DNA of 63,966 bases, filler included, from a bacterium (GTDB taxonomy: Bacteria; UBA9089; CG2-30-40-21; SBAY01): assembly GCA_040757115.1 (NCBI GenBank). It is 7 parts of 7 records of this genome, joined end to end, with 100 filler letters (N's around TTAATTAATTAA, not from the genome) between each part and the next. Parts side by side here need not be neighbours in the genome. Positions count along the whole stretch, not along the records: positions 1 to 29,334 come from JBFLYA010000023.1; 6 more parts are not named here. One strand, given 5' to 3'. The notes under the pieces are model-generated. The model ran no database searches and was not told the DNA's origin. It saw only the letters and a program-made list of their open reading frames with translations. Shown piece after piece: positions 3,890 to 59,013 of this stretch (the stretch's first letter is position 1; every line of letters starts with the position of its first letter). A program made the position numbers and the translations under genes.

Positions 3890-4050
3890 TTTAATCTTAT
3901 CTCAATTATTCCGTTTTTTACCCCTTTAAGTGATGAAACCATAGCCAGAAGGGTATTATACATAAAATCAGCCACAAAATGACCAAGTGGTATTTTTTTA
4001 CCATTTATTTTTATTTCTATTTTTGGCTCATTAACTTTATTTTCCATCAT
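3883..4050 (-). CDS. Small hypothetical protein
   Basis: ORF overlapping the peptidase start; SD supplied by the ATTTTCAGGAG repeat half-site. Confidence 0.55.
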   Translation of the reverse strand: MMENKVNEPKIEIKINGKKIPLGHFVADFMYNTLLAMVSSLKGVKNGIIEIRLKW

Positions 4051-4210
4051 TCTCCTGAAAATAGTTTTTTCACGCAAAGGACGCAAAGGTAATTTTTTCC
4101 CTTATTTCCCTTTGGGTTCTTTGCGTGCTTGGCGTGAAACTTCCTTTTCCCTGAAAATAGGGGTTCGGGGATTCTTTTATTCCCGAATCCCTTTATTTTC
4201 ATCCTCCTTC
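4051..4210. repeat. Family-D repeat array remnant
   Basis: CTCCTGAAAAT...CCCTGAAAAT...ATTTTCATCCTCC with palindromic cargo between sites. Confidence 0.6.
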
Positions 4211-4275
4211 TTCTCCAAAGAGCAAAATGCAAAAAGCAAATATAAAAATTACATATCAAAATGTAAAATTATCTC

Positions 4276-5986: not shown

Positions 5987-6099
5987 TTTAATATATCCAT
6001 AGGAAGTAGAGAGTAGAAAGTAGAGAGTAGAGAGAAAATCTTTCCTCCACCTATGTTTCCCTATTTTCATTCTTCTCGGTTCATGTCCGTTCTCCTGAA

Positions 6100-6341
6100 G
6101 TAACCGTTCAGCCACAGAGGCACAGAGTTCACAGAGAATTAGAGAAATTAGCCACAAATGGACACGAATTAACCTGTGACATTCGATAAATGTAGTGCGA
6201 ACCTTTAGGTTCGCTTTCCTGCTTGCCAGAAGCGAGGCTAAAGCCTCGCACTACAAATCTTTTTATTATTCGTGTTCATTCGTGGTTATATATTCCCTCT
6301 GTGTTCTCTGTGACTCTGTGGCTATATCCCTGAACGGTTAC
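6100..6341. mobile_element. Family-B IS66-type MITE containing a REPIN-like doublet
   Basis: TIR GTAACCGTTCAG; 8-bp TSD CTCCTGAA (6092-6099 / 6342-6349); inserted into a family-D repeat; internal GTAG-hairpin...hairpin-CTAC. Confidence 0.85.
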
Positions 6342-6362
6342 CTCCTGAAAATATCCGCAAGA

Positions 6363-7154
6363 TTATTTTCCTTCAGCCTCAGCTTTGAGTGGCCACTCTT
6401 CTTTATTAAAGAATGCCTTTAATTTTTCCTCAACGATTCTGGGGTTATCACCGGCTTGAATAGATAAAACACCTGTAACAATCAGGTCTTTTACAAAAAC
6501 CTCATTTTCATTTAATCTTTTTAATTTCATAGCAATAGGAATAAGAACCAGGTTAGCCAGAGCAACACCATAGAAAGAGGCAATAAACGCAATTGCCAGC
6601 GAGTGAACCGTGGTCATAATGTCTCCACCCCCCATTTTCCCCAGGGCACCGGTTAGCCCCATAATCGCGCCTAAAATTCCCATAGTTGGGGCAATACCTC
6701 CGGCAGACATAAAAATATCCTCGCCTAATTTATGTCTATGTTTCATATGGGTTAAATCTATATCAAGGATTTCCTCAATCAATTCGGGGTCTACGCCATC
6801 CACCACTAACTGAATGCCTTTTTGAAAATATGGGTCTTTAATATTTTCGATATCTGCTTCTAAAGCTAATAATCCTTCGCGTCGAGCCTTCTGAGCAAAA
6901 GCAATCATTGTTTCAATAATCTCTTTTGGTTCTTCTTCCTTATTAAAAAACATAATTTTTAGGAAGGTTGGCGTCTTCATTAATTCCTTCATCGTGAACA
7001 TCGCCCCGGTCGCCAGCACTGAGCCTGAACCAATGATGACCGCACCAGGGATGTTCAAATATCCCTGACCAACTATTCCTATCTCTTCAAGTAACACACA
7101 ACCAACACAAGCGGCAATACCACCTATGATTCCAAAGACACTAACTATATCCAT
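6363..7154 (-). CDS. motA: Flagellar stator protein MotA/PomA
   Basis: ARREGLLALE, GIQLVVDG, APTMGILG, SIQAGDNPR. Confidence 0.92.
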   Translation of the reverse strand: MDIVSVFGIIGGIAACVGCVLLEEIGIVGQGYLNIPGAVIIGSGSVLATGAMFTMKELMKTPTFLKIMFFNKEEEPKEIIETMIAFAQKARREGLLALEADIENIKDPYFQKGIQLVVDGVDPELIEEILDIDLTHMKHRHKLGEDIFMSAGGIAPTMGILGAIMGLTGALGKMGGGDIMTTVHSLAIAFIASFYGVALANLVLIPIAMKLKRLNENEVFVKDLIVTGVLSIQAGDNPRIVEEKLKAFFNKEEWPLKAEAEGK

Positions 7155-7163
7155 TTTTGTCTT

Positions 7164-7744
7164 CTCCTGAAAATAAGGAAGTAGAAAGTAGAGAGTAGAA
7201 AGTAGAAAGTAAAGAAAACATCACTCCTCACGCCTATCTCCTTACCTCCCATCTTCTATCTCCTACCACTATTTTCATTCTCATTTGTGAACCAACGGTT
7301 CATGACCGTTTCCCCTGAAAATCGGGACTCGGGACTCGGGGTTCGGGAAGAAAGAAACTCTCAGCAATTCCCCCTTAATAAAGGGGGTTAGGGGGTTGTC
7401 CTTCTCCCATTTTCATTGCCCTTTGTGAGCCCTGGCTCATGTCCGTTTCCCCTGAAAATAAGGAAGTAGAAAGTAGAGAGTAGAAAGTAGAAAGTAAAGA
7501 AAACATCACTCCTCACGCCTATCTCCTTACCTCCCACCTTCTATCTCTTACCACTATTTTCATTCTCATTTGTGAACCAACGGTTCATGAGCGTTTCTCC
7601 TGAAAATCGGGACTCGGGACTCGGGGTTCGGGAAGAAAGAAACTCTCAGCAATTCCCCCTTAATAAAGGGGGTTAGGGGGTTGTCCTTCTCCCATTTTCA
7701 TTGCCCTTTGTGAGCCCTGGCTCATGTCCGTTTCCCCTGAAAAT
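7164..7744. repeat. Family-D array: four ~52-bp structured repeats with alternating cargo (285-bp tandem duplication)
   Basis: Repeats at 7271-7322, 7409-7459, 7556-7607 and 7694-7744; half-site at 7164-7174. Confidence 0.9.
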
Positions 7745-7864
7745 AGTTTTTGCCACAAAGACTCAAAGGCACAAAGTATAAATTTTATGGTGACTCAATT
7801 ATTACATTTATTATAATATATAATTTTATTGATGTCAAGAAAAAATTTGGCAAGATTATGAAAC

Positions 7865-9070
7865 TCAAGTAGTATAATGGGCATTAAGGCGGACATATTC
7901 CATAGATAAATCACTGCCTAAGACCATTATTTCCTGTCTGCCTTGTTTTAAGTCAATCGTAATTAAGATTTCTTTTTGAGATAAGATATTTTTAACTTTA
8001 TCTAAATTAAAAGCTATGCCCTGTCCATTTTTTGCAATTAATTCTCGGTCGAAATAGATATCAATTATGTTCGGATTTATTTTTATCCCGGAATACCCAC
8101 AGGCAGTTATAATTCTTCCCCAATTAGGGTCCTGACCATAAAAGGCACATCTAACGAGTTGTGATTTGGCAACACTCATTGCGACCTGTTTTGCCTCAAG
8201 AAATGATTTTGCTCCTTTAACATTAATTTTTAGAAGTTTAGTTACCCCTTCTCCTTCTTCTACCATCTTTTGGGCTAAATTTGAACATACATAATCTAAT
8301 GACTGTTGGAATTTGTTGAAATCATTCGTGTTAGAAGAAGTTATCACTTCATTTTTTGCAAGACCATTGGCTAAAAGAATAACCATATCATTTGGGCTTG
8401 TATCTCCATCAATGGTGATTAAGTTAAAGGATTTATTCACCGCCGTAGTTAATGCCTTTTTTAATAATCTTTTACTGATAGCGACATCTGTAGTGATAAA
8501 AACTAACATTGTGGCTAAATTTGGGCATATCATTCCGGCGCCCTTTGCCATAGCGCCTATTTTTGCCTTAATTCCACCAGTTAGTTCAAATTCCAGAGCA
8601 ATCTCTTTAGGTTTAGTATCCGTTGTTAGAATAGCCCATGCGGCATCTTCACTTTTTGGACCCAGGAATTTAATTAATTGTTTTATTCCCTTTTCAATCT
8701 TTTCCATTGGTAATGGTTTTCCAATGATACCTGTGGAGGCAACTAAAACCGTCTTTATCGGCACGCCAAGAGAAAGTGCAGTAATTTGTGCCATTTTTTT
8801 AGCATCTTTTAACCCTTGCTTGCCGGTACAGGCATTAGCATTTCCACTATTAATGATGATAGCGTGGATTTTTTTTGAGGTTTGTAGATGTTCTTTTGTT
8901 ACAATTAAAGGAGCAGCCTTAAGTTTATTCCTGGTAAATAGAGCTACAGCCGTAGCGGGTATCGGGGAATAGATAAGCGCTATATCTTTTTTCTCTGGTT
9001 TTATGCCGCAGTGCCCTCCGGCAGTTAAAATGCCATTTATAGATGTAATCCCACCATTTATCTCTTTCAT
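7865..9070 (-). CDS. argJ: Bifunctional ornithine acetyltransferase / N-acetylglutamate synthase
   Basis: NSGNANACTG, STGIIG, TTDT, KGAGMICPNLATML, DPNWGRI. Confidence 0.97.
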   Translation of the reverse strand: MKEINGGITSINGILTAGGHCGIKPEKKDIALIYSPIPATAVALFTRNKLKAAPLIVTKEHLQTSKKIHAIIINSGNANACTGKQGLKDAKKMAQITALSLGVPIKTVLVASTGIIGKPLPMEKIEKGIKQLIKFLGPKSEDAAWAILTTDTKPKEIALEFELTGGIKAKIGAMAKGAGMICPNLATMLVFITTDVAISKRLLKKALTTAVNKSFNLITIDGDTSPNDMVILLANGLAKNEVITSSNTNDFNKFQQSLDYVCSNLAQKMVEEGEGVTKLLKINVKGAKSFLEAKQVAMSVAKSQLVRCAFYGQDPNWGRIITACGYSGIKINPNIIDIYFDRELIAKNGQGIAFNLDKVKNILSQKEILITIDLKQGRQEIMVLGSDLSMEYVRLNAHYTT

Positions 9071-9080
9071 TTAAAACTCT

Positions 9081-9229
9081 TCTCCTGAAAATAAGGAAGT
9101 AGAAAGTAGAGAGTAGAAAGTAAAGAAAACATCACTCCTCACGCTTATCTCCCTATCTCCCACCTTCTATCTCCTACCACTATTTTCATCCTCATTTGTG
9201 AACCAACGGTTCATGAGCGTTTCTCCTGA
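9081..9229. repeat. Family-D unit upstream of argJ
   Basis: Near-identical to 7164-7318; supplies the AGGAG SD of argJ. Confidence 0.8.
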
Positions 9230-9240
9230 TAACTGAAATG

Positions 9241-9474
9241 GTAACCGTTCAGATAGTAATTCACCGCAGAGGGACAGAGAAGACATGGAAATAAATCAGA
9301 TAACAGAAAAGATTAGGTAATACATAAAACATCAAAACCAAATTTGTTAATCAATCATGATATGTCGGTTCTTAAAAGCTTGCCCTGATGAAAATCAGGG
9401 ATGGAATAAAGTGTGTGGTAAATAGTTTTTTATTTTTTTCTCTGCGTCTCTGTGTCTCTGCGGTGAACGGTTAC
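9241..9474. mobile_element. Family-C IS66-type MITE
   Basis: TIR GTAACCGTTCA; 8-bp TSD CTGAAATG; MEINQITEKI remnant at 9285. Confidence 0.8.
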
Positions 9475-9535
9475 CTGAAATGGAGTATTGGAGATAATTC
9501 TATCACTCCCTTACTCCAATTCTCCCTCACTCTAA

Positions 9536-25979: not shown

Positions 25980-26067
25980 TGGTGCCGGAAGCGGGATTTG
26001 AACCCGCACACCCATTCGGGCACATGGCCCTCAACCATGCGTGTCTACCATATTCCACCATCCCGGC
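25980..26067 (-). tRNA. tRNA-Leu (GAG)
   Basis: Acceptor stem GCCGGGA/TTCCGGC plus ACCA, anticodon arm CATGG-TTGAGGG-CCATG, long variable arm, GGTTCAAATCC T-loop. Confidence 0.96.
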
Positions 26068-34526: not shown

Positions 34527-34578
34527 GAATTTCTTTTTTGGGACGCAGATGAACGCAGATTTTCAAGATTTTAAAATA

Positions 34579-35020
34579 AAGAATTGACCGAGAAGATCAT
34601 AAAGGCATTCTACAAAGTTTATAATACCCTTGTATATGGTTTTCTGGAGAAACGCTCATGCCCACAGGGAGTGGGCACAAAGGAGGATGAAAATCGGGCA
34701 TAGAGATTAGAGATTGGAGATTAGAGATTAGCAAGAGTGCAGGTTCTAATTCACTAATTCTCTAATCTCTAATTAACTATTTTCAGGGGAAACGACCATG
34801 TCCACAGGGTGGACACAAAGGAGGATGAAAATAGTGGTAGGAGATAGAAGGTAGGAGGTAAGGAGATAGGCGTGAGGAGTGATGTTTTCTTTACTTTCTA
34901 CTTTCTACTCTCTACTTTCTACTTCCTTATTTTCAGGAGAAACCTACAGATATTGAAGTTGGACTATTACTTAATTTTGGACCTAAACCCGAAGTCAAAC
35001 GAAAGGCTTTTGATAATATG
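34579..35020 (+). pseudogene. GxxExxY gene whose middle is replaced by a family-D array
   Basis: KELTEKIIKAFYKVYNTLVYGFLEK | array 34640-34943 | TDIEVGLLLNFGPKPEVKRKAFDN. Confidence 0.8.
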
Positions 35021-35375
35021 GGAAAATAATTATACTCACCAACGGCACAAATTAAGATTTTTTAATAGGGACTCGATAGCCAGGTGATATAGGGTTTGTA
35101 AGATATATTACCATAAGTAAGTGTTAAAAAATGTCAACAATTATTGTTTTGAACCTTCAATTCAGACATAAAAAAGAAGATATAAGGGGTAATAAAAAAA
35201 AGATTATTATTTTGGATAAGGAAGATAGGGTTGATAAAAATGAGATATGTTAGTTTCTCTGATGGTGAGATTGTANNNNNNNNNNNNNNNNNNNNNNNNN
35301 NNNNNNNNNNNNNNNNNNNTTAATTAATTAANNNNNNNNNNNNNNNNNNNNNNNNNNNNNNNNNNNNNNNNNNNN

Positions 35376-53316: not shown

Positions 53317-53354
53317 AAAAAACCCAACCTTCGCAATGATAAGATTGGGTTTTA
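53317..53354 (-). terminator. Intrinsic terminator downstream of the riboswitch
   Basis: AAAACCCAATCTT...AAGGTTGGGTTTTTT hairpin with T run. Confidence 0.65.
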
Positions 53355-53391
53355 ATTTTTTCTTTCTTTCCCGCGAAAGTAATGCTCCATA

Positions 53392-53480
53392 ATAGGTAAT
53401 CGACCGGACTCATCATTTTTTAAATGATATTACCGTTGCGGGGCAGTGCCTTGAATCTCACAAGGACTTCCTTTACCTAT
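53392..53480 (-). ncRNA. Cobalamin riboswitch (short form)
   Basis: ATAGGTAA / TTACCTAT closing stem, AAGGAAGT-CCTTGTGAGATTCAAGG-CACTGCCCCGCAACGGTAA, B12-box-like GAGTCCGG; promoter TTGACA-17-TATAAA at about 53498-53526. Confidence 0.8.
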
Positions 53481-53546
53481 CTGACTATTTTCTATTATTT
53501 ATAGCATATCACTCATTGTTTGTCAACTAAAATTTTTAAATTTTTG

Positions 53547-58542: not shown

Positions 58543-58658
58543 TTTTTTCTCACCTCCTTTTTGCGACTGCATCATTTTTACATTACCACAATTCTTCAAT
58601 AATGTCAACTTATTTTTTTCTTGCAATAATTTTATATGTGTGCTATACTACAAAGGAA

Positions 58659-58873
58659 GATGAAAATTAAGGGGCTCGGGACTCGGGAATAAAAGAATCC
58701 CCGAGTCCCGAGTCCCGATTTTCAGGGGAAACGCTCATGAACCGTGGGTTCACAAACGAGGATGAAAATAGTAGGTAGGAGATAGAAGGGGGGAAGGAGA
58801 TAGGCGTGAGGAGTGATGTTTTCTTTACTTTCTACTTTCTACTCTCTACTTTCTACTTCCTTATTTTCAGGAG
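58659..58873. repeat. Family-D array upstream of alaS
   Basis: GATGAAAAT - cargo - full repeat (58718-58769) - cargo - ATTTTCAGGAG. Confidence 0.85.
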
Positions 58874-58880
58874 AGAATAA

Positions 58881-59013
58881 ATGACTGGAACAGAAATTCG
58901 CACAAAATTCTTAGATTATTTTAGCGCACTTGACCATACGATTAAAACAAGTGCCTCGCTGGTGCCGACTGACCCAACGGTTTTATTTACAATTGCCGGG
59001 ATGGTACCGTTTA
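58881..59013 (+). CDS. alaS: Alanyl-tRNA synthetase N-terminus (contig edge)
   Basis: EIR..FLDYF...H.....SLVP.DPT.LFT.AGM.PF. Confidence 0.9.

Follow-up and report, generated by a model that had tools for sequence, protein, structure and literature searches.

A stretch of 63,966 nucleotides (nt) from the genome of an uncultured groundwater bacterium of a candidate phylum (GenBank assembly GCA_040757115.1), here called the window, carries a repeat of about 52 nt that punctuates arrays of short non-coding modules, among other places at positions 7164 to 7744. The hairpin of this repeat and the TGAAAAT behind it are the left end, and ATTTTC is the right end, of an insertion sequence (IS) of the IS110 family. 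The complete 52-mer is therefore found only where a right end meets a left end, as in a tandem or a circle. We read the repeat as the end-to-end junction of small mobile elements derived from such an insertion sequence, and the units of the window as having probably been moved by an RNA-guided DEDD recombinase. The probability of this reading is put at about 0.68.

According to the parts of two published descriptions that cover the mechanism (PMC11208160, PMC11187229), the DEDD transposases of the IS110 family excise the element as a circle, and a bridge or seek RNA, which recognises both the target and the joined ends on either side of a 2-nt core, determines where the circle is inserted. The IS1111 group is described there as having the RNA in a long right end and subterminal inverted repeats flanking the donor.

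The window is a concatenation of contigs with runs of N between them, and distances across the joins are meaningless. Positions 29335-59113 contain six pairs of 44-N runs, each pair around a TTAATTAATTAA linker; there is one contig of about 29 kb and several pieces of about 5.8 kb. The nearest genome, G001, which has 38% of the sampled words in common with the window and shares genes with it at 97-100% identity, was used for comparison. G001 and the other genomes of its family (G002-G005) are fragmented short-read bins of 250-770 contigs. Bins of this kind tend to lose multi-copy elements; repeats break them, and many units lie no more than about 130 nt from contig ends. G001 measures 4.7 Mb, the family members 2.4-2.9 Mb.

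The unit and its covarying hairpin

The unit reads AG, GRGAAAC-NN-CATG, a covarying hairpin and CACAAA..TGAAAAT, which together make a left end of about 45 nt, followed by a cargo, ATTTTC and AG. The CATG is nearly invariant, and in each unit GGRG is followed, after 8 nt, by ATG. On the minus strand of 6900-9500 the 52-nt part varies from 51 to 54 nt and is succeeded by 80-96 nt of cargo, a pattern that occurs four times. The 16-mer head has 11 matches in the window at two or fewer mismatches, where 0.14 were expected and 100 shuffles gave at most 2. In G001 the pattern matched 37 times in its strict and 73 times in a looser form, and a reversed-pattern control matched nowhere.

A covariance model, R1, was built from 65 distinct copies of the 52-nt unit. 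It found all eight copies listed in the original prediction, which had been made from the sequence alone, with E-values from 2e-14 to 7.5e-10; the next best hit stood at E 0.054. All 58 candidates scored in G001 were hits, and the copy number in that genome is at least 58-73. All five genomes of the G001 family have hits (at least 58 in G001, 24 in G003, 10 in G004 and one each in G002 and G005). Beyond the family, among 100 relatives of G001, G008 and G012 had one hit each, and the remaining 93 had none.

Compensatory changes in the inner stem had been predicted, and the copies bear this out. Four of the seven inner pairs vary on both sides among the 65 copies, each with three or four types of Watson-Crick pair; pair 25-37, for example, is GC in 20, AU in 19 and CG in 19. 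Paired cells make up 94.7% of the inner stem. Of the mismatched cells, 17 hold A.C or C.A and 6 hold G.T or T.G, events that are not independent. The covariation score of 0.244 was reached in none of 500 shuffles, a count that is not a probability because the copies are related, and with slid partners the score falls to 0.078 or less. Lack of significant covariation had been named beforehand as a sign against a structured site; four pairs of the stem covary. The outer 7-bp inverted repeat, said to be nearly invariant, is so in the collected copies. This invariance was imposed by the collection, which used a pattern demanding the outer arms, and the left arms at 9233 and 34639 are degenerate.

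Membership in a known Rfam family, another sign against a new kind of site, was not found: no family matches the unit at the gathering threshold in a search of the whole window, and a search of 7100-7800 at E up to 1 returned only rows 40-80 bits below gathering. Folded as single-stranded DNA (ssDNA), the unit reaches a z-score of -1.2 to -2.1 at best. A coding role was rejected because the variants of 51, 52 and 53 nt shift the frame and the peptides are not conserved. A CRISPR-like reading was rejected by eye, as the repeats vary with compensation and the 'spacers' recur.

Element ends in full IS110-family insertion sequences

Public collections were scanned with a pattern that fixed only the two outer parts of the unit. 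The copies found outside the family also have CATG, the stem-loop and CACAAA in the right places. The pattern scans gave unrelated matches as well, such as a conserved 61-nt stretch in ten Chryseobacterium records, which were excluded from the alignment. In three metagenome contigs, L058, L062 and L064, a gene follows 70-90 nt downstream of the unit. The product at L064 matches the domains DEDD_Tnp_IS110 (PF01548, 1.4e-28) and Transposase_20 (PF02371, 8.2e-16), as does the product at L058 (9.3e-31 and 3.2e-10), and the L062 protein is 71% identical to that of L064. The single match in the PDB is the IS621 transposase (E 1e-6).

The genome of locus L051, here G101, is assembled in large contigs and has many transposase copies, 72-83% identical to that of L064. 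At nine of nine loci the start codon is preceded, at a distance of about 75 nt, by the hairpin part, which runs from (A)GAAAC through TGAAAAT; the left flanks are different at all nine and lack ATTTTCA. The right end stops at TTAATTTTCAG and is followed by different DNA in all eight loci where it was located. Full-length genes headed by this left end occur in two further genomes, as L137 (77% identity to L064) and L139 (82%), and hits occur in 7 of 121 genomes among the relatives of G101. To avoid circularity, a second covariance model, R2, was trained on the copies of the window and G001 only. It matches the left ends at L058 (1e-12), L064 (1.8e-12) and L062 (2.4e-10), and the nine G101 copies, which are without the left arm, at 1.8e-8 to 0.018. 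Genes of the IS110 family, one of the enzyme types to be looked for according to the original prediction, thus adjoin the hairpin end in other genomes (nine of nine G101 loci, L137 and L139). The match to an IS end that might have identified the repeat as something known was found in kind, the end being that of a member to which we saw no name given. In G101 (L113-L123), most copies of the transposase consist of two overlapping pieces, residues 1-126/139 and 119-405, with the break at a common position; a shared frameshift, programmed or inherited, may be the cause.

The order at L064 is right end, complete 52-mer, transposase, right end again, half-site and unrelated flank, an arrangement that a tandem and an assembled circle would both give. 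The original prediction had offered the junction of a circularising mini-element as one of two explanations, and this one is supported: hairpin and ATTTTC are left and right ends elsewhere, and L064 carries the junction expected of a circle or tandem.

The ends of the full elements, GAAAC... and ...ATTTTC, do not form a terminal inverted repeat. Most copies of the full element have AG or GR at each of the two junctions, L117 being an exception. The left end is about 120 nt long, and the right end, of about 215 nt, includes a conserved non-coding segment (L064, L058, L051, G101). The 7-bp subterminal repeat TGAAAAT/ATTTTCA has its right copy 0-2 nt and its left copy about 38 nt from the respective end. 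Judged by this layout (DEDD transposase, short left end, long right end with a conserved non-coding segment), the parent family appears to have IS1111-like architecture.

The same ends also bound units without a transposase. At L057/L058 the hairpin end is followed by 55 nt and ATTTTC; at L138, L140 and L142 a palindromic cargo stands between hairpin end and ATTTTC; L125 and L127 combine the hairpin end with the non-coding segment of the right end; and L124, a unit of about 51 nt, has almost nothing between its two ends. The window units, too, appear to be of the kind known as miniature inverted-repeat transposable elements (MITE-like), as they share both ends with the full elements (R2 matches the left end, and ATTTTC closes both) and have no transposase. 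The original prediction was correct that the window holds no cognate enzyme.

Two variable patches interrupt the conserved segment of the right end, which is without an Rfam match at E up to 0.1. In eight of ten copies the two variable positions of the second, CAG plus 7 nt, agree with the right junction, in three states (AA, GG and AG). The first agrees with the left junction at nine of nine positions in L113 and closely in L117, L118 and L120, and does not match it in L114-L116. From their sequences, the patches would look like guide segments.

Arrays at gene starts and the choice between explanations

Arrays were examined in the window and at 30 G001 loci, some of them overlapping, and were de-duplicated by context. 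Every module, with or without the hairpin, is bounded by ATTTTCAGGRGA. Arrays occur at more than 30 places, with up to seven units each, and all units run head to tail; none of 65 adjacent core pairs lies on opposite strands. That arrays often end in half-sites had been noted before and holds at all the terminal junctions of Table 1. Downstream of 15 of the 28 arrays ending in this way, an open reading frame (ORF) of at least 60 codons starts on the same strand after 6-19 nt. At those gene starts the half-site reads GGAGAA and serves as the ribosome-binding site; the four-unit array, for example, is closed by the half-unit ATTTTCAGGAGAAG, which leaves 7 nt to the ATG of gene 6363..7154. Half-sites with GGGG are often followed by a second purine run resembling a ribosome-binding site (L001, L013, L014 and L026, by eye). 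All 12 occurrences of TTTCAGGRG in the window fall within units, array ends or another repeat, and the word is therefore not the general ribosome-binding context of the organism.

The cargo is interchangeable, as had been proposed. The hairpin variants AGTCT and CCCCT each precede five or more kinds of cargo, whereas variant AACCG is followed by cargo A (Table 1) in 11 of 11 cases. The AGTAGAA cargo, reported from four or more loci, has five copies at four loci in the window. An invariant order of cargos, which would speak for simple duplication, was not observed.

The outer junctions of the arrays differ from each other. A pattern search in G001 gave ten hairpin copies without the left arm (six other matches were not units), and L009 is the eleventh; all eleven are the first of their array and have a variable left flank. 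By eye, AG stands at the position of the site's AG in these copies, one case needing a 1-nt gap. In the window, degenerate left arms are confined to the two copies, at 9233 and 34639, that border on non-repeat DNA. At their right-hand border the arrays invariably show a perfect ATTTTC-AG, a GAGAA-like sequence and then unique DNA. Hybrid left junctions, perfect right junctions and strict co-orientation are the signature of orientation- and site-specific insertion.

The arrays differ between close relatives. The G001 orthologue of gene 6363..7154 has the same ATTTTCAGGAGAAGACAAAAATG upstream, but about 430 nt of other repeat modules take the place of the four units. Upstream of the gene at 58881, window and G001 are identical through the promoter-like region as far as TGAAAAT; the modules are then completely different, the divergence stops exactly at ATTTTCAGGAGA, and identity continues from there. 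In G003, which belongs to another genus of the family, both orthologues tested have ordinary ribosome-binding sites and no units. Since the modules differ between strains that are 97-100% identical, the arrays are recent and their turnover is much faster than point substitution.

The proposed mechanism is as follows. A DEDD recombinase with a bridge or seek RNA reading ATTTTC-AG-GRGAAAC would have moved, or would still move, the units as circles. The sequence ATTTTC-AG-GRGAAAC would be present on the inserting circle and, in similar form, at the chromosomal site, with the crossover presumably within AGGR. The preferred chromosomal target, (A/T-rich)-AG-GAGAA, would be a Shine-Dalgarno sequence; such sites before genes would be hit because the right half of the donor, GRGAA, resembles it. 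Insertion would be orientation-specific and would regenerate AGGAGAA at the right junction, so that the gene would keep its ribosome-binding site. Each inserted unit would offer two new docking sites, one at each boundary, and arrays would for this reason build up in 5' untranslated regions. DNA caught between two sites, such as the heptamer-armed hairpins abundant in the genome, would be carried along as cargo. The reshuffling must in part also be due to homologous recombination among the numerous copies; the 285-bp duplication described below, a breakpoint inside a unit and chimeric cargos point to such exchange.

Mobilisation in the window's lineage has to be inferred, because no matching transposase was found there, and the window units are accordingly without an autonomous partner found in the same genome or lineage. 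Several results weigh against the proposal. Neither the five family genomes nor 40 relatives of G001, fragmented bins as they are, yielded a transposase of the L064 type. R2 finds no unit at the IS110-family genes G001:C586, G001:C212, G004:C12 and G003:C271, which come from three of the five family genomes. The strain difference before the 58881 gene begins at TGAAAAT, inside the unit, and not at AG, a breakpoint that fits homologous exchange better than site-specific exchange. Thirteen of the 28 arrays have no gene start at their end. The second patch does not match in L112 and L051, and the agreement elsewhere comes from four independent lineages. In the consensus fold of the right-end RNA, 2 of 30 pairs show compensatory change, too little diversity to support a structure, and nothing in the window cargos resembles the conserved RNA at the right end of the full elements. 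The 7-bp repeat is shorter, and its left copy farther from the end (about 38 nt), than the classic IS1111 subterminal repeats, which according to the relevant part of PMC11187229 are usually 11-13 bp long and lie at distances of 7 nt (left) and 3 nt (right) from the ends. The public data containing the region (three runs of one groundwater study) are contigs, not reads, and hold no read-level evidence on circles or empty sites. Joints in the mapping of these contigs have short sides and resemble other copies of the repeats, and module depths summed over the contigs, at 20-300 times unique depth, are not a copy number.

Three other explanations have to be considered. The units could be relics of dead insertion-sequence ends, in arrays that change only by slippage, unequal crossing-over and gene conversion on repeats of 13-50 nt, with no dedicated enzyme. 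The family's lack of a cognate transposase agrees with this, as do the plain 285-bp tandem duplication of two units at 7162-7731 (98% identity), the one strain difference whose left breakpoint lies inside a unit, and chimeric cargos that join at short common words, as in L001. The relics would, however, have to be strictly co-oriented and to show hybrid left and perfect right junctions at dozens of separate loci. Their placement at ribosome-binding sites needs an insertion step, the turnover between strains of 97-100% identity is hard to reconcile with them, and the pairing of the hairpin, kept by compensatory changes, points to selection on the copies. Host recombination alone explains the reshuffling but does not explain the spread to dozens of ribosome-binding sites or the maintained hairpin, and we consider it unlikely that the units are no more than relics. 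The units could also have been kept or recruited as structured 5' leader modules that tune translation or mRNA stability, for which we see a small chance. GGRG followed after 8 nt by ATG, the long hairpins immediately ahead of the real ribosome-binding site, the nearly invariant CATG, the sense orientation of all arrays at gene starts and one array that starts directly after a -10-like box would suit such a role. Orientation-specific insertion alone explains the sense bias, though, and the short frames after the ATG are not conserved, being shifted by the 51-, 52- and 53-nt variants. The orthologues in G001 and G003 do without these modules, and the same hairpin is found at insertion-sequence ends unrelated to host genes. 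For the sense RNA of cargo A the predicted fold, a hairpin of about 33 bp rich in G.U pairs, has -32.9 kcal/mol (z -2.4), against -14.9 for the antisense and -4.3 for DNA, an asymmetry that is largely compositional, as shuffles of the sense strand average -25 kcal/mol. A role in mRNA is possible as a secondary effect.

The remaining alternative, the other half of the original prediction, is an attC-like site folded as ssDNA and served by a tyrosine recombinase or HUH enzyme. It was suggested by the two layers of inverted repeats with an unpaired spacer and by the cassette-like arrays, and G001 does contain 11 tyrosine-recombinase hits (PF00589) and 9 Y1/HUH hits (PF01797). This explanation fails because the two outer arms belong to different element ends, and it is very improbable also in view of the eleven array-initial G001 copies without a left arm, the weak folding of the ssDNA and the spread of arrays over more than 30 loci where one platform would be expected. 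Nor is there any linkage to such enzymes in G001, where adjacency had been proposed as a check: none of the 11 recombinase hits is on a repeat-bearing contig, no Y1/RAYT gene is next to the units, and one of the nine HUH hits shares a contig with them, 11 kb away. Y1/HUH hits number 9 in G001, 1 in G003 and 0 in G002; the G001 genes are candidates for the movers of other repeat families composed of a hairpin and a heptamer.

Two observations concern possible enzymes in the family. In G004 (L093-L104), at least 15 contig ends share a unit and a leader of at least 146 nt, with a TTGCAG..TATAAT promoter-like pair, followed by an ORF start (MTMDTTVGNG); the interior is missing from the bin, and about 24 further solo units are present. 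The interior of this element could be followed for no more than 198 nt, and by eye the 13 residues that open its ORF show only a weak alignment to the N-terminal end of the L064 transposase. In G001, the stand-alone 1712-nt contig C586 (L108) holds an IS110-family gene of 420 codons behind about 410 nt of non-coding DNA in which TTGACT..TATTAT resembles a promoter. Probably this is an IS110-group element present in several copies, with its bridge RNA upstream; it has no relation to the present unit. Site-like purine- or pyrimidine-rich words in it were judged indistinguishable from chance, R2 finding no unit.

Features of the window and relation to known systems

The units, cargos and terminal junctions of the window are collected in Table 1.

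Table 1. Junction units, cargos and array ends in the window
Position	Strand	Feature	R1 E
7271..7322	-	Junction unit: right-end arm ATTTTC, AG, left-end head GGGAAACG, covarying hairpin, TGAAAAT	2.2e-14
7409..7459	-	Junction unit, 51-nt variant, AGCC/GGCT stem	6.7e-13
7556..7607	-	Junction unit	2.2e-14
7694..7744	-	Junction unit, first of array, after another repeat module ending ...AAAAACT	6.7e-13
9182..9233	-	Solitary junction unit at left boundary of one-unit insertion; degenerate left arm GTTATCA, read as native flank	1.2e-11
34639..34694	+	Array-initial junction unit; left arm GTTTTCT formed by GFLEK codons of GxxExxY-like gene remnant	7.5e-10
34779..34832	+	Junction unit, TCCAC/GTGGA stem	1.8e-12
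58718..58769	+	Junction unit	4.9e-14
7175..7270	-	Cargo A: purine-rich arm and AGTAGAA-type heptamer arm	
7460-7555	-	Cargo A, further copy	
9093-9181	-	Cargo A, further copy	
34833-34928	+	Cargo A, further copy	
58770-58862	+	Cargo A, further copy	
7323..7408	-	Cargo B: CCCCC/GGGGG hairpin and CGGGACT heptamer tail	
7608-7693	-	Cargo B, second copy	
34695..34778	+	Cargo: hairpin with GAGATTA heptamer arms	
58650..58717	+	3' part of junction unit without hairpin (58650-67), directly after -10-like TATACT; then hairpin cargo with CGGGACT arms	
7162..7174	-	Terminal junction ATTTTC-AG-GAGAAG, Shine-Dalgarno of gene 6363..7154(-), ATG at 7154	
9080..9092	-	Terminal junction and Shine-Dalgarno of gene 7865..9070(-), which we take to be argJ-like	
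58863..58875	+	Terminal junction and Shine-Dalgarno of gene starting at 58881(+), presumably alanyl-tRNA synthetase-like	
34929..34943	+	Terminal junction running into C-terminal codons of GxxExxY-like remnant	
4050..4216	-	Further array with the same punctuation: 3' part of junction unit without hairpin (4195-4216), then hairpin cargo	
4063-4158	-	Non-unit module of the same array, beginning ATTTTCAGGGAAAAGG	
4050-4062	-	Terminal junction of the same array, before 55-codon ORF	

At 34540-35030 lies the remnant of a GxxExxY gene, whose product we assume to be PD-(D/E)XK-like. It is preceded by GACGCAGAT-type heptamers, and its middle is replaced by the array, which enters at the GFLEK codons; the array lies inside this gene because these codons mimic the site. 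G001 lacks both gene and array at this locus, where it has only a roughly 75-nt hairpin carrying the same heptamer arm, and no sign was found of the GxxExxY nuclease as a mobiliser.

Other repeats occur near the units. A palindromic repeat of about 243 bp at 6077-6343 is absent from the orthologous site of G001 (C65:6872/6878) and has more than 40 copies elsewhere in that genome (91-100% identity, matching on both strands); it looks like a separate MITE family with insertion polymorphism. The element at 9235-9480 has inverted ends (GGTAACCGTTCA...) and subterminal repeats of the CACCGCAGAGA type, and its right arm has the highest summed contig depth of the mapped stretch (87,000, compared with about 300 in unique DNA), a figure that cannot be taken as a copy number. 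Above the gathering score, Rfam yields just two matches in the window, an AdoCbl riboswitch at 53352-53496(-) (54.4 bits) and a tRNA at 25983-26067(-) (51.5 bits).

The closest precedent in the published material is ISPpu9/MITEPpu9 of Pseudomonas putida, compared here by description. In the portion of PMC12288879 concerned with these elements, ISPpu9 has the core AG and a 43-bp left-end box with an inverted repeat, and modules flanked by its end boxes form circles of their own, exist without a transposase and occur in tandem. The resemblance extends to an element with a DEDD transposase, a left end of about 43 bp (about 45 nt here, like the A box) with an inverted repeat, a short right end, AG at the recombination site, transposase-less non-coding modules with the same ends in tandem, and no requirement for a junction promoter. 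Eight module copies are reported there within REP sequences, beside or apart from seven full elements of the same genome (PMC12288879). Unlike that case as described, the present one involves at least 58-73 units per genome, arrays of up to seven on ribosome-binding sites, many unrelated cargos, and no full element found in the lineage.

With the IS1111 group, so far as the two descriptions cited above portray it, the elements at L064 and in G101 have in common a short left end, a long right end with a conserved segment, subterminal inverted repeats, though shorter ones, and probably site- and orientation-specific insertion. The variable patches of the right-end segment appear to track the junction sequences, as in that group, the RNA being predicted here. 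In contrast to the group as portrayed, the stretch between left end and repeat holds a covarying hairpin, and donor and target are nearly the same, so that elements stack.

Arrays of exchangeable modules punctuated by a conserved site with imperfect inverted repeats recall integrons and their attC sites, and the terminal half-site resembles a hybrid site. Unlike an integron, the system has no integrase/attI platform, dozens of arrays per genome, non-coding cargo, sites made of two element ends, and a candidate DEDD enzyme; neither a linked IntI nor a single attI platform was found in G001. Short, hairpin-prone mosaic intergenic repeats such as REP/BIME/REPIN, BOX and the cyanobacterial STRR heptamers are also similar, and the heptamer-armed cargos are of that kind. 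The junction units differ from these in being strictly co-oriented, in lying 5' of genes and in sharing their ends with a transposase-bearing element, with no adjacent Y1/RAYT gene. The alternating units and flanked Y1 gene of a REP/BIME system with RAYT were not seen, with no opposite-strand pair among 65.

The kind of element is known, from the IS110/IS1111 elements and one analysed MITE-like derivative, as far as these are covered in the consulted parts of PMC12288879, PMC11208160 and PMC11187229. Set against the same parts, what differs is the covarying hairpin in a long left extension, the near likeness of donor and target, the docking on Shine-Dalgarno sequences, the scale and array form, and the occurrence in two distant lineages, the window's candidate phylum and the relatives of G101. 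No description of such arrays came up in our literature searches, which is not proof that none exists.

The principle of ISPpu9/MITEPpu9, in so far as the source describes it, is here carried much further, to units as short as about 50 nt in dozens to more than 70 copies per genome and in strict head-to-tail arrays. Because the target coincides with the ribosome-binding site, insertions would be tolerated and gene leaders changed. The unit also explains one component of the mosaic intergenic repeats that break assemblies of such genomes. Much current work is directed at the IS110-family recombinases, with their guide RNAs, as programmable tools for genome writing, and the system offers testable parts for asking what an IS110/IS1111 enzyme needs in cis: a left end of about 45 nt with a structurally conserved hairpin, a right end of 6 nt, and full elements (G101, L064, L137 and L139) with a predicted right-end RNA. 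A more far-reaching possibility, which we put forward tentatively and hold to be doubtful, is that a natural DEDD system of the bridge-RNA type, with donor and target nearly alike, works like an integron without an integrase, excising, inserting and reordering units down to a size of about 51 nt, docked on Shine-Dalgarno sequences that stay intact, and thereby continually rewriting the leaders of dozens of genes. If this is true, the covarying hairpin of the left end would be a cis signal undescribed for IS110/IS1111 elements.

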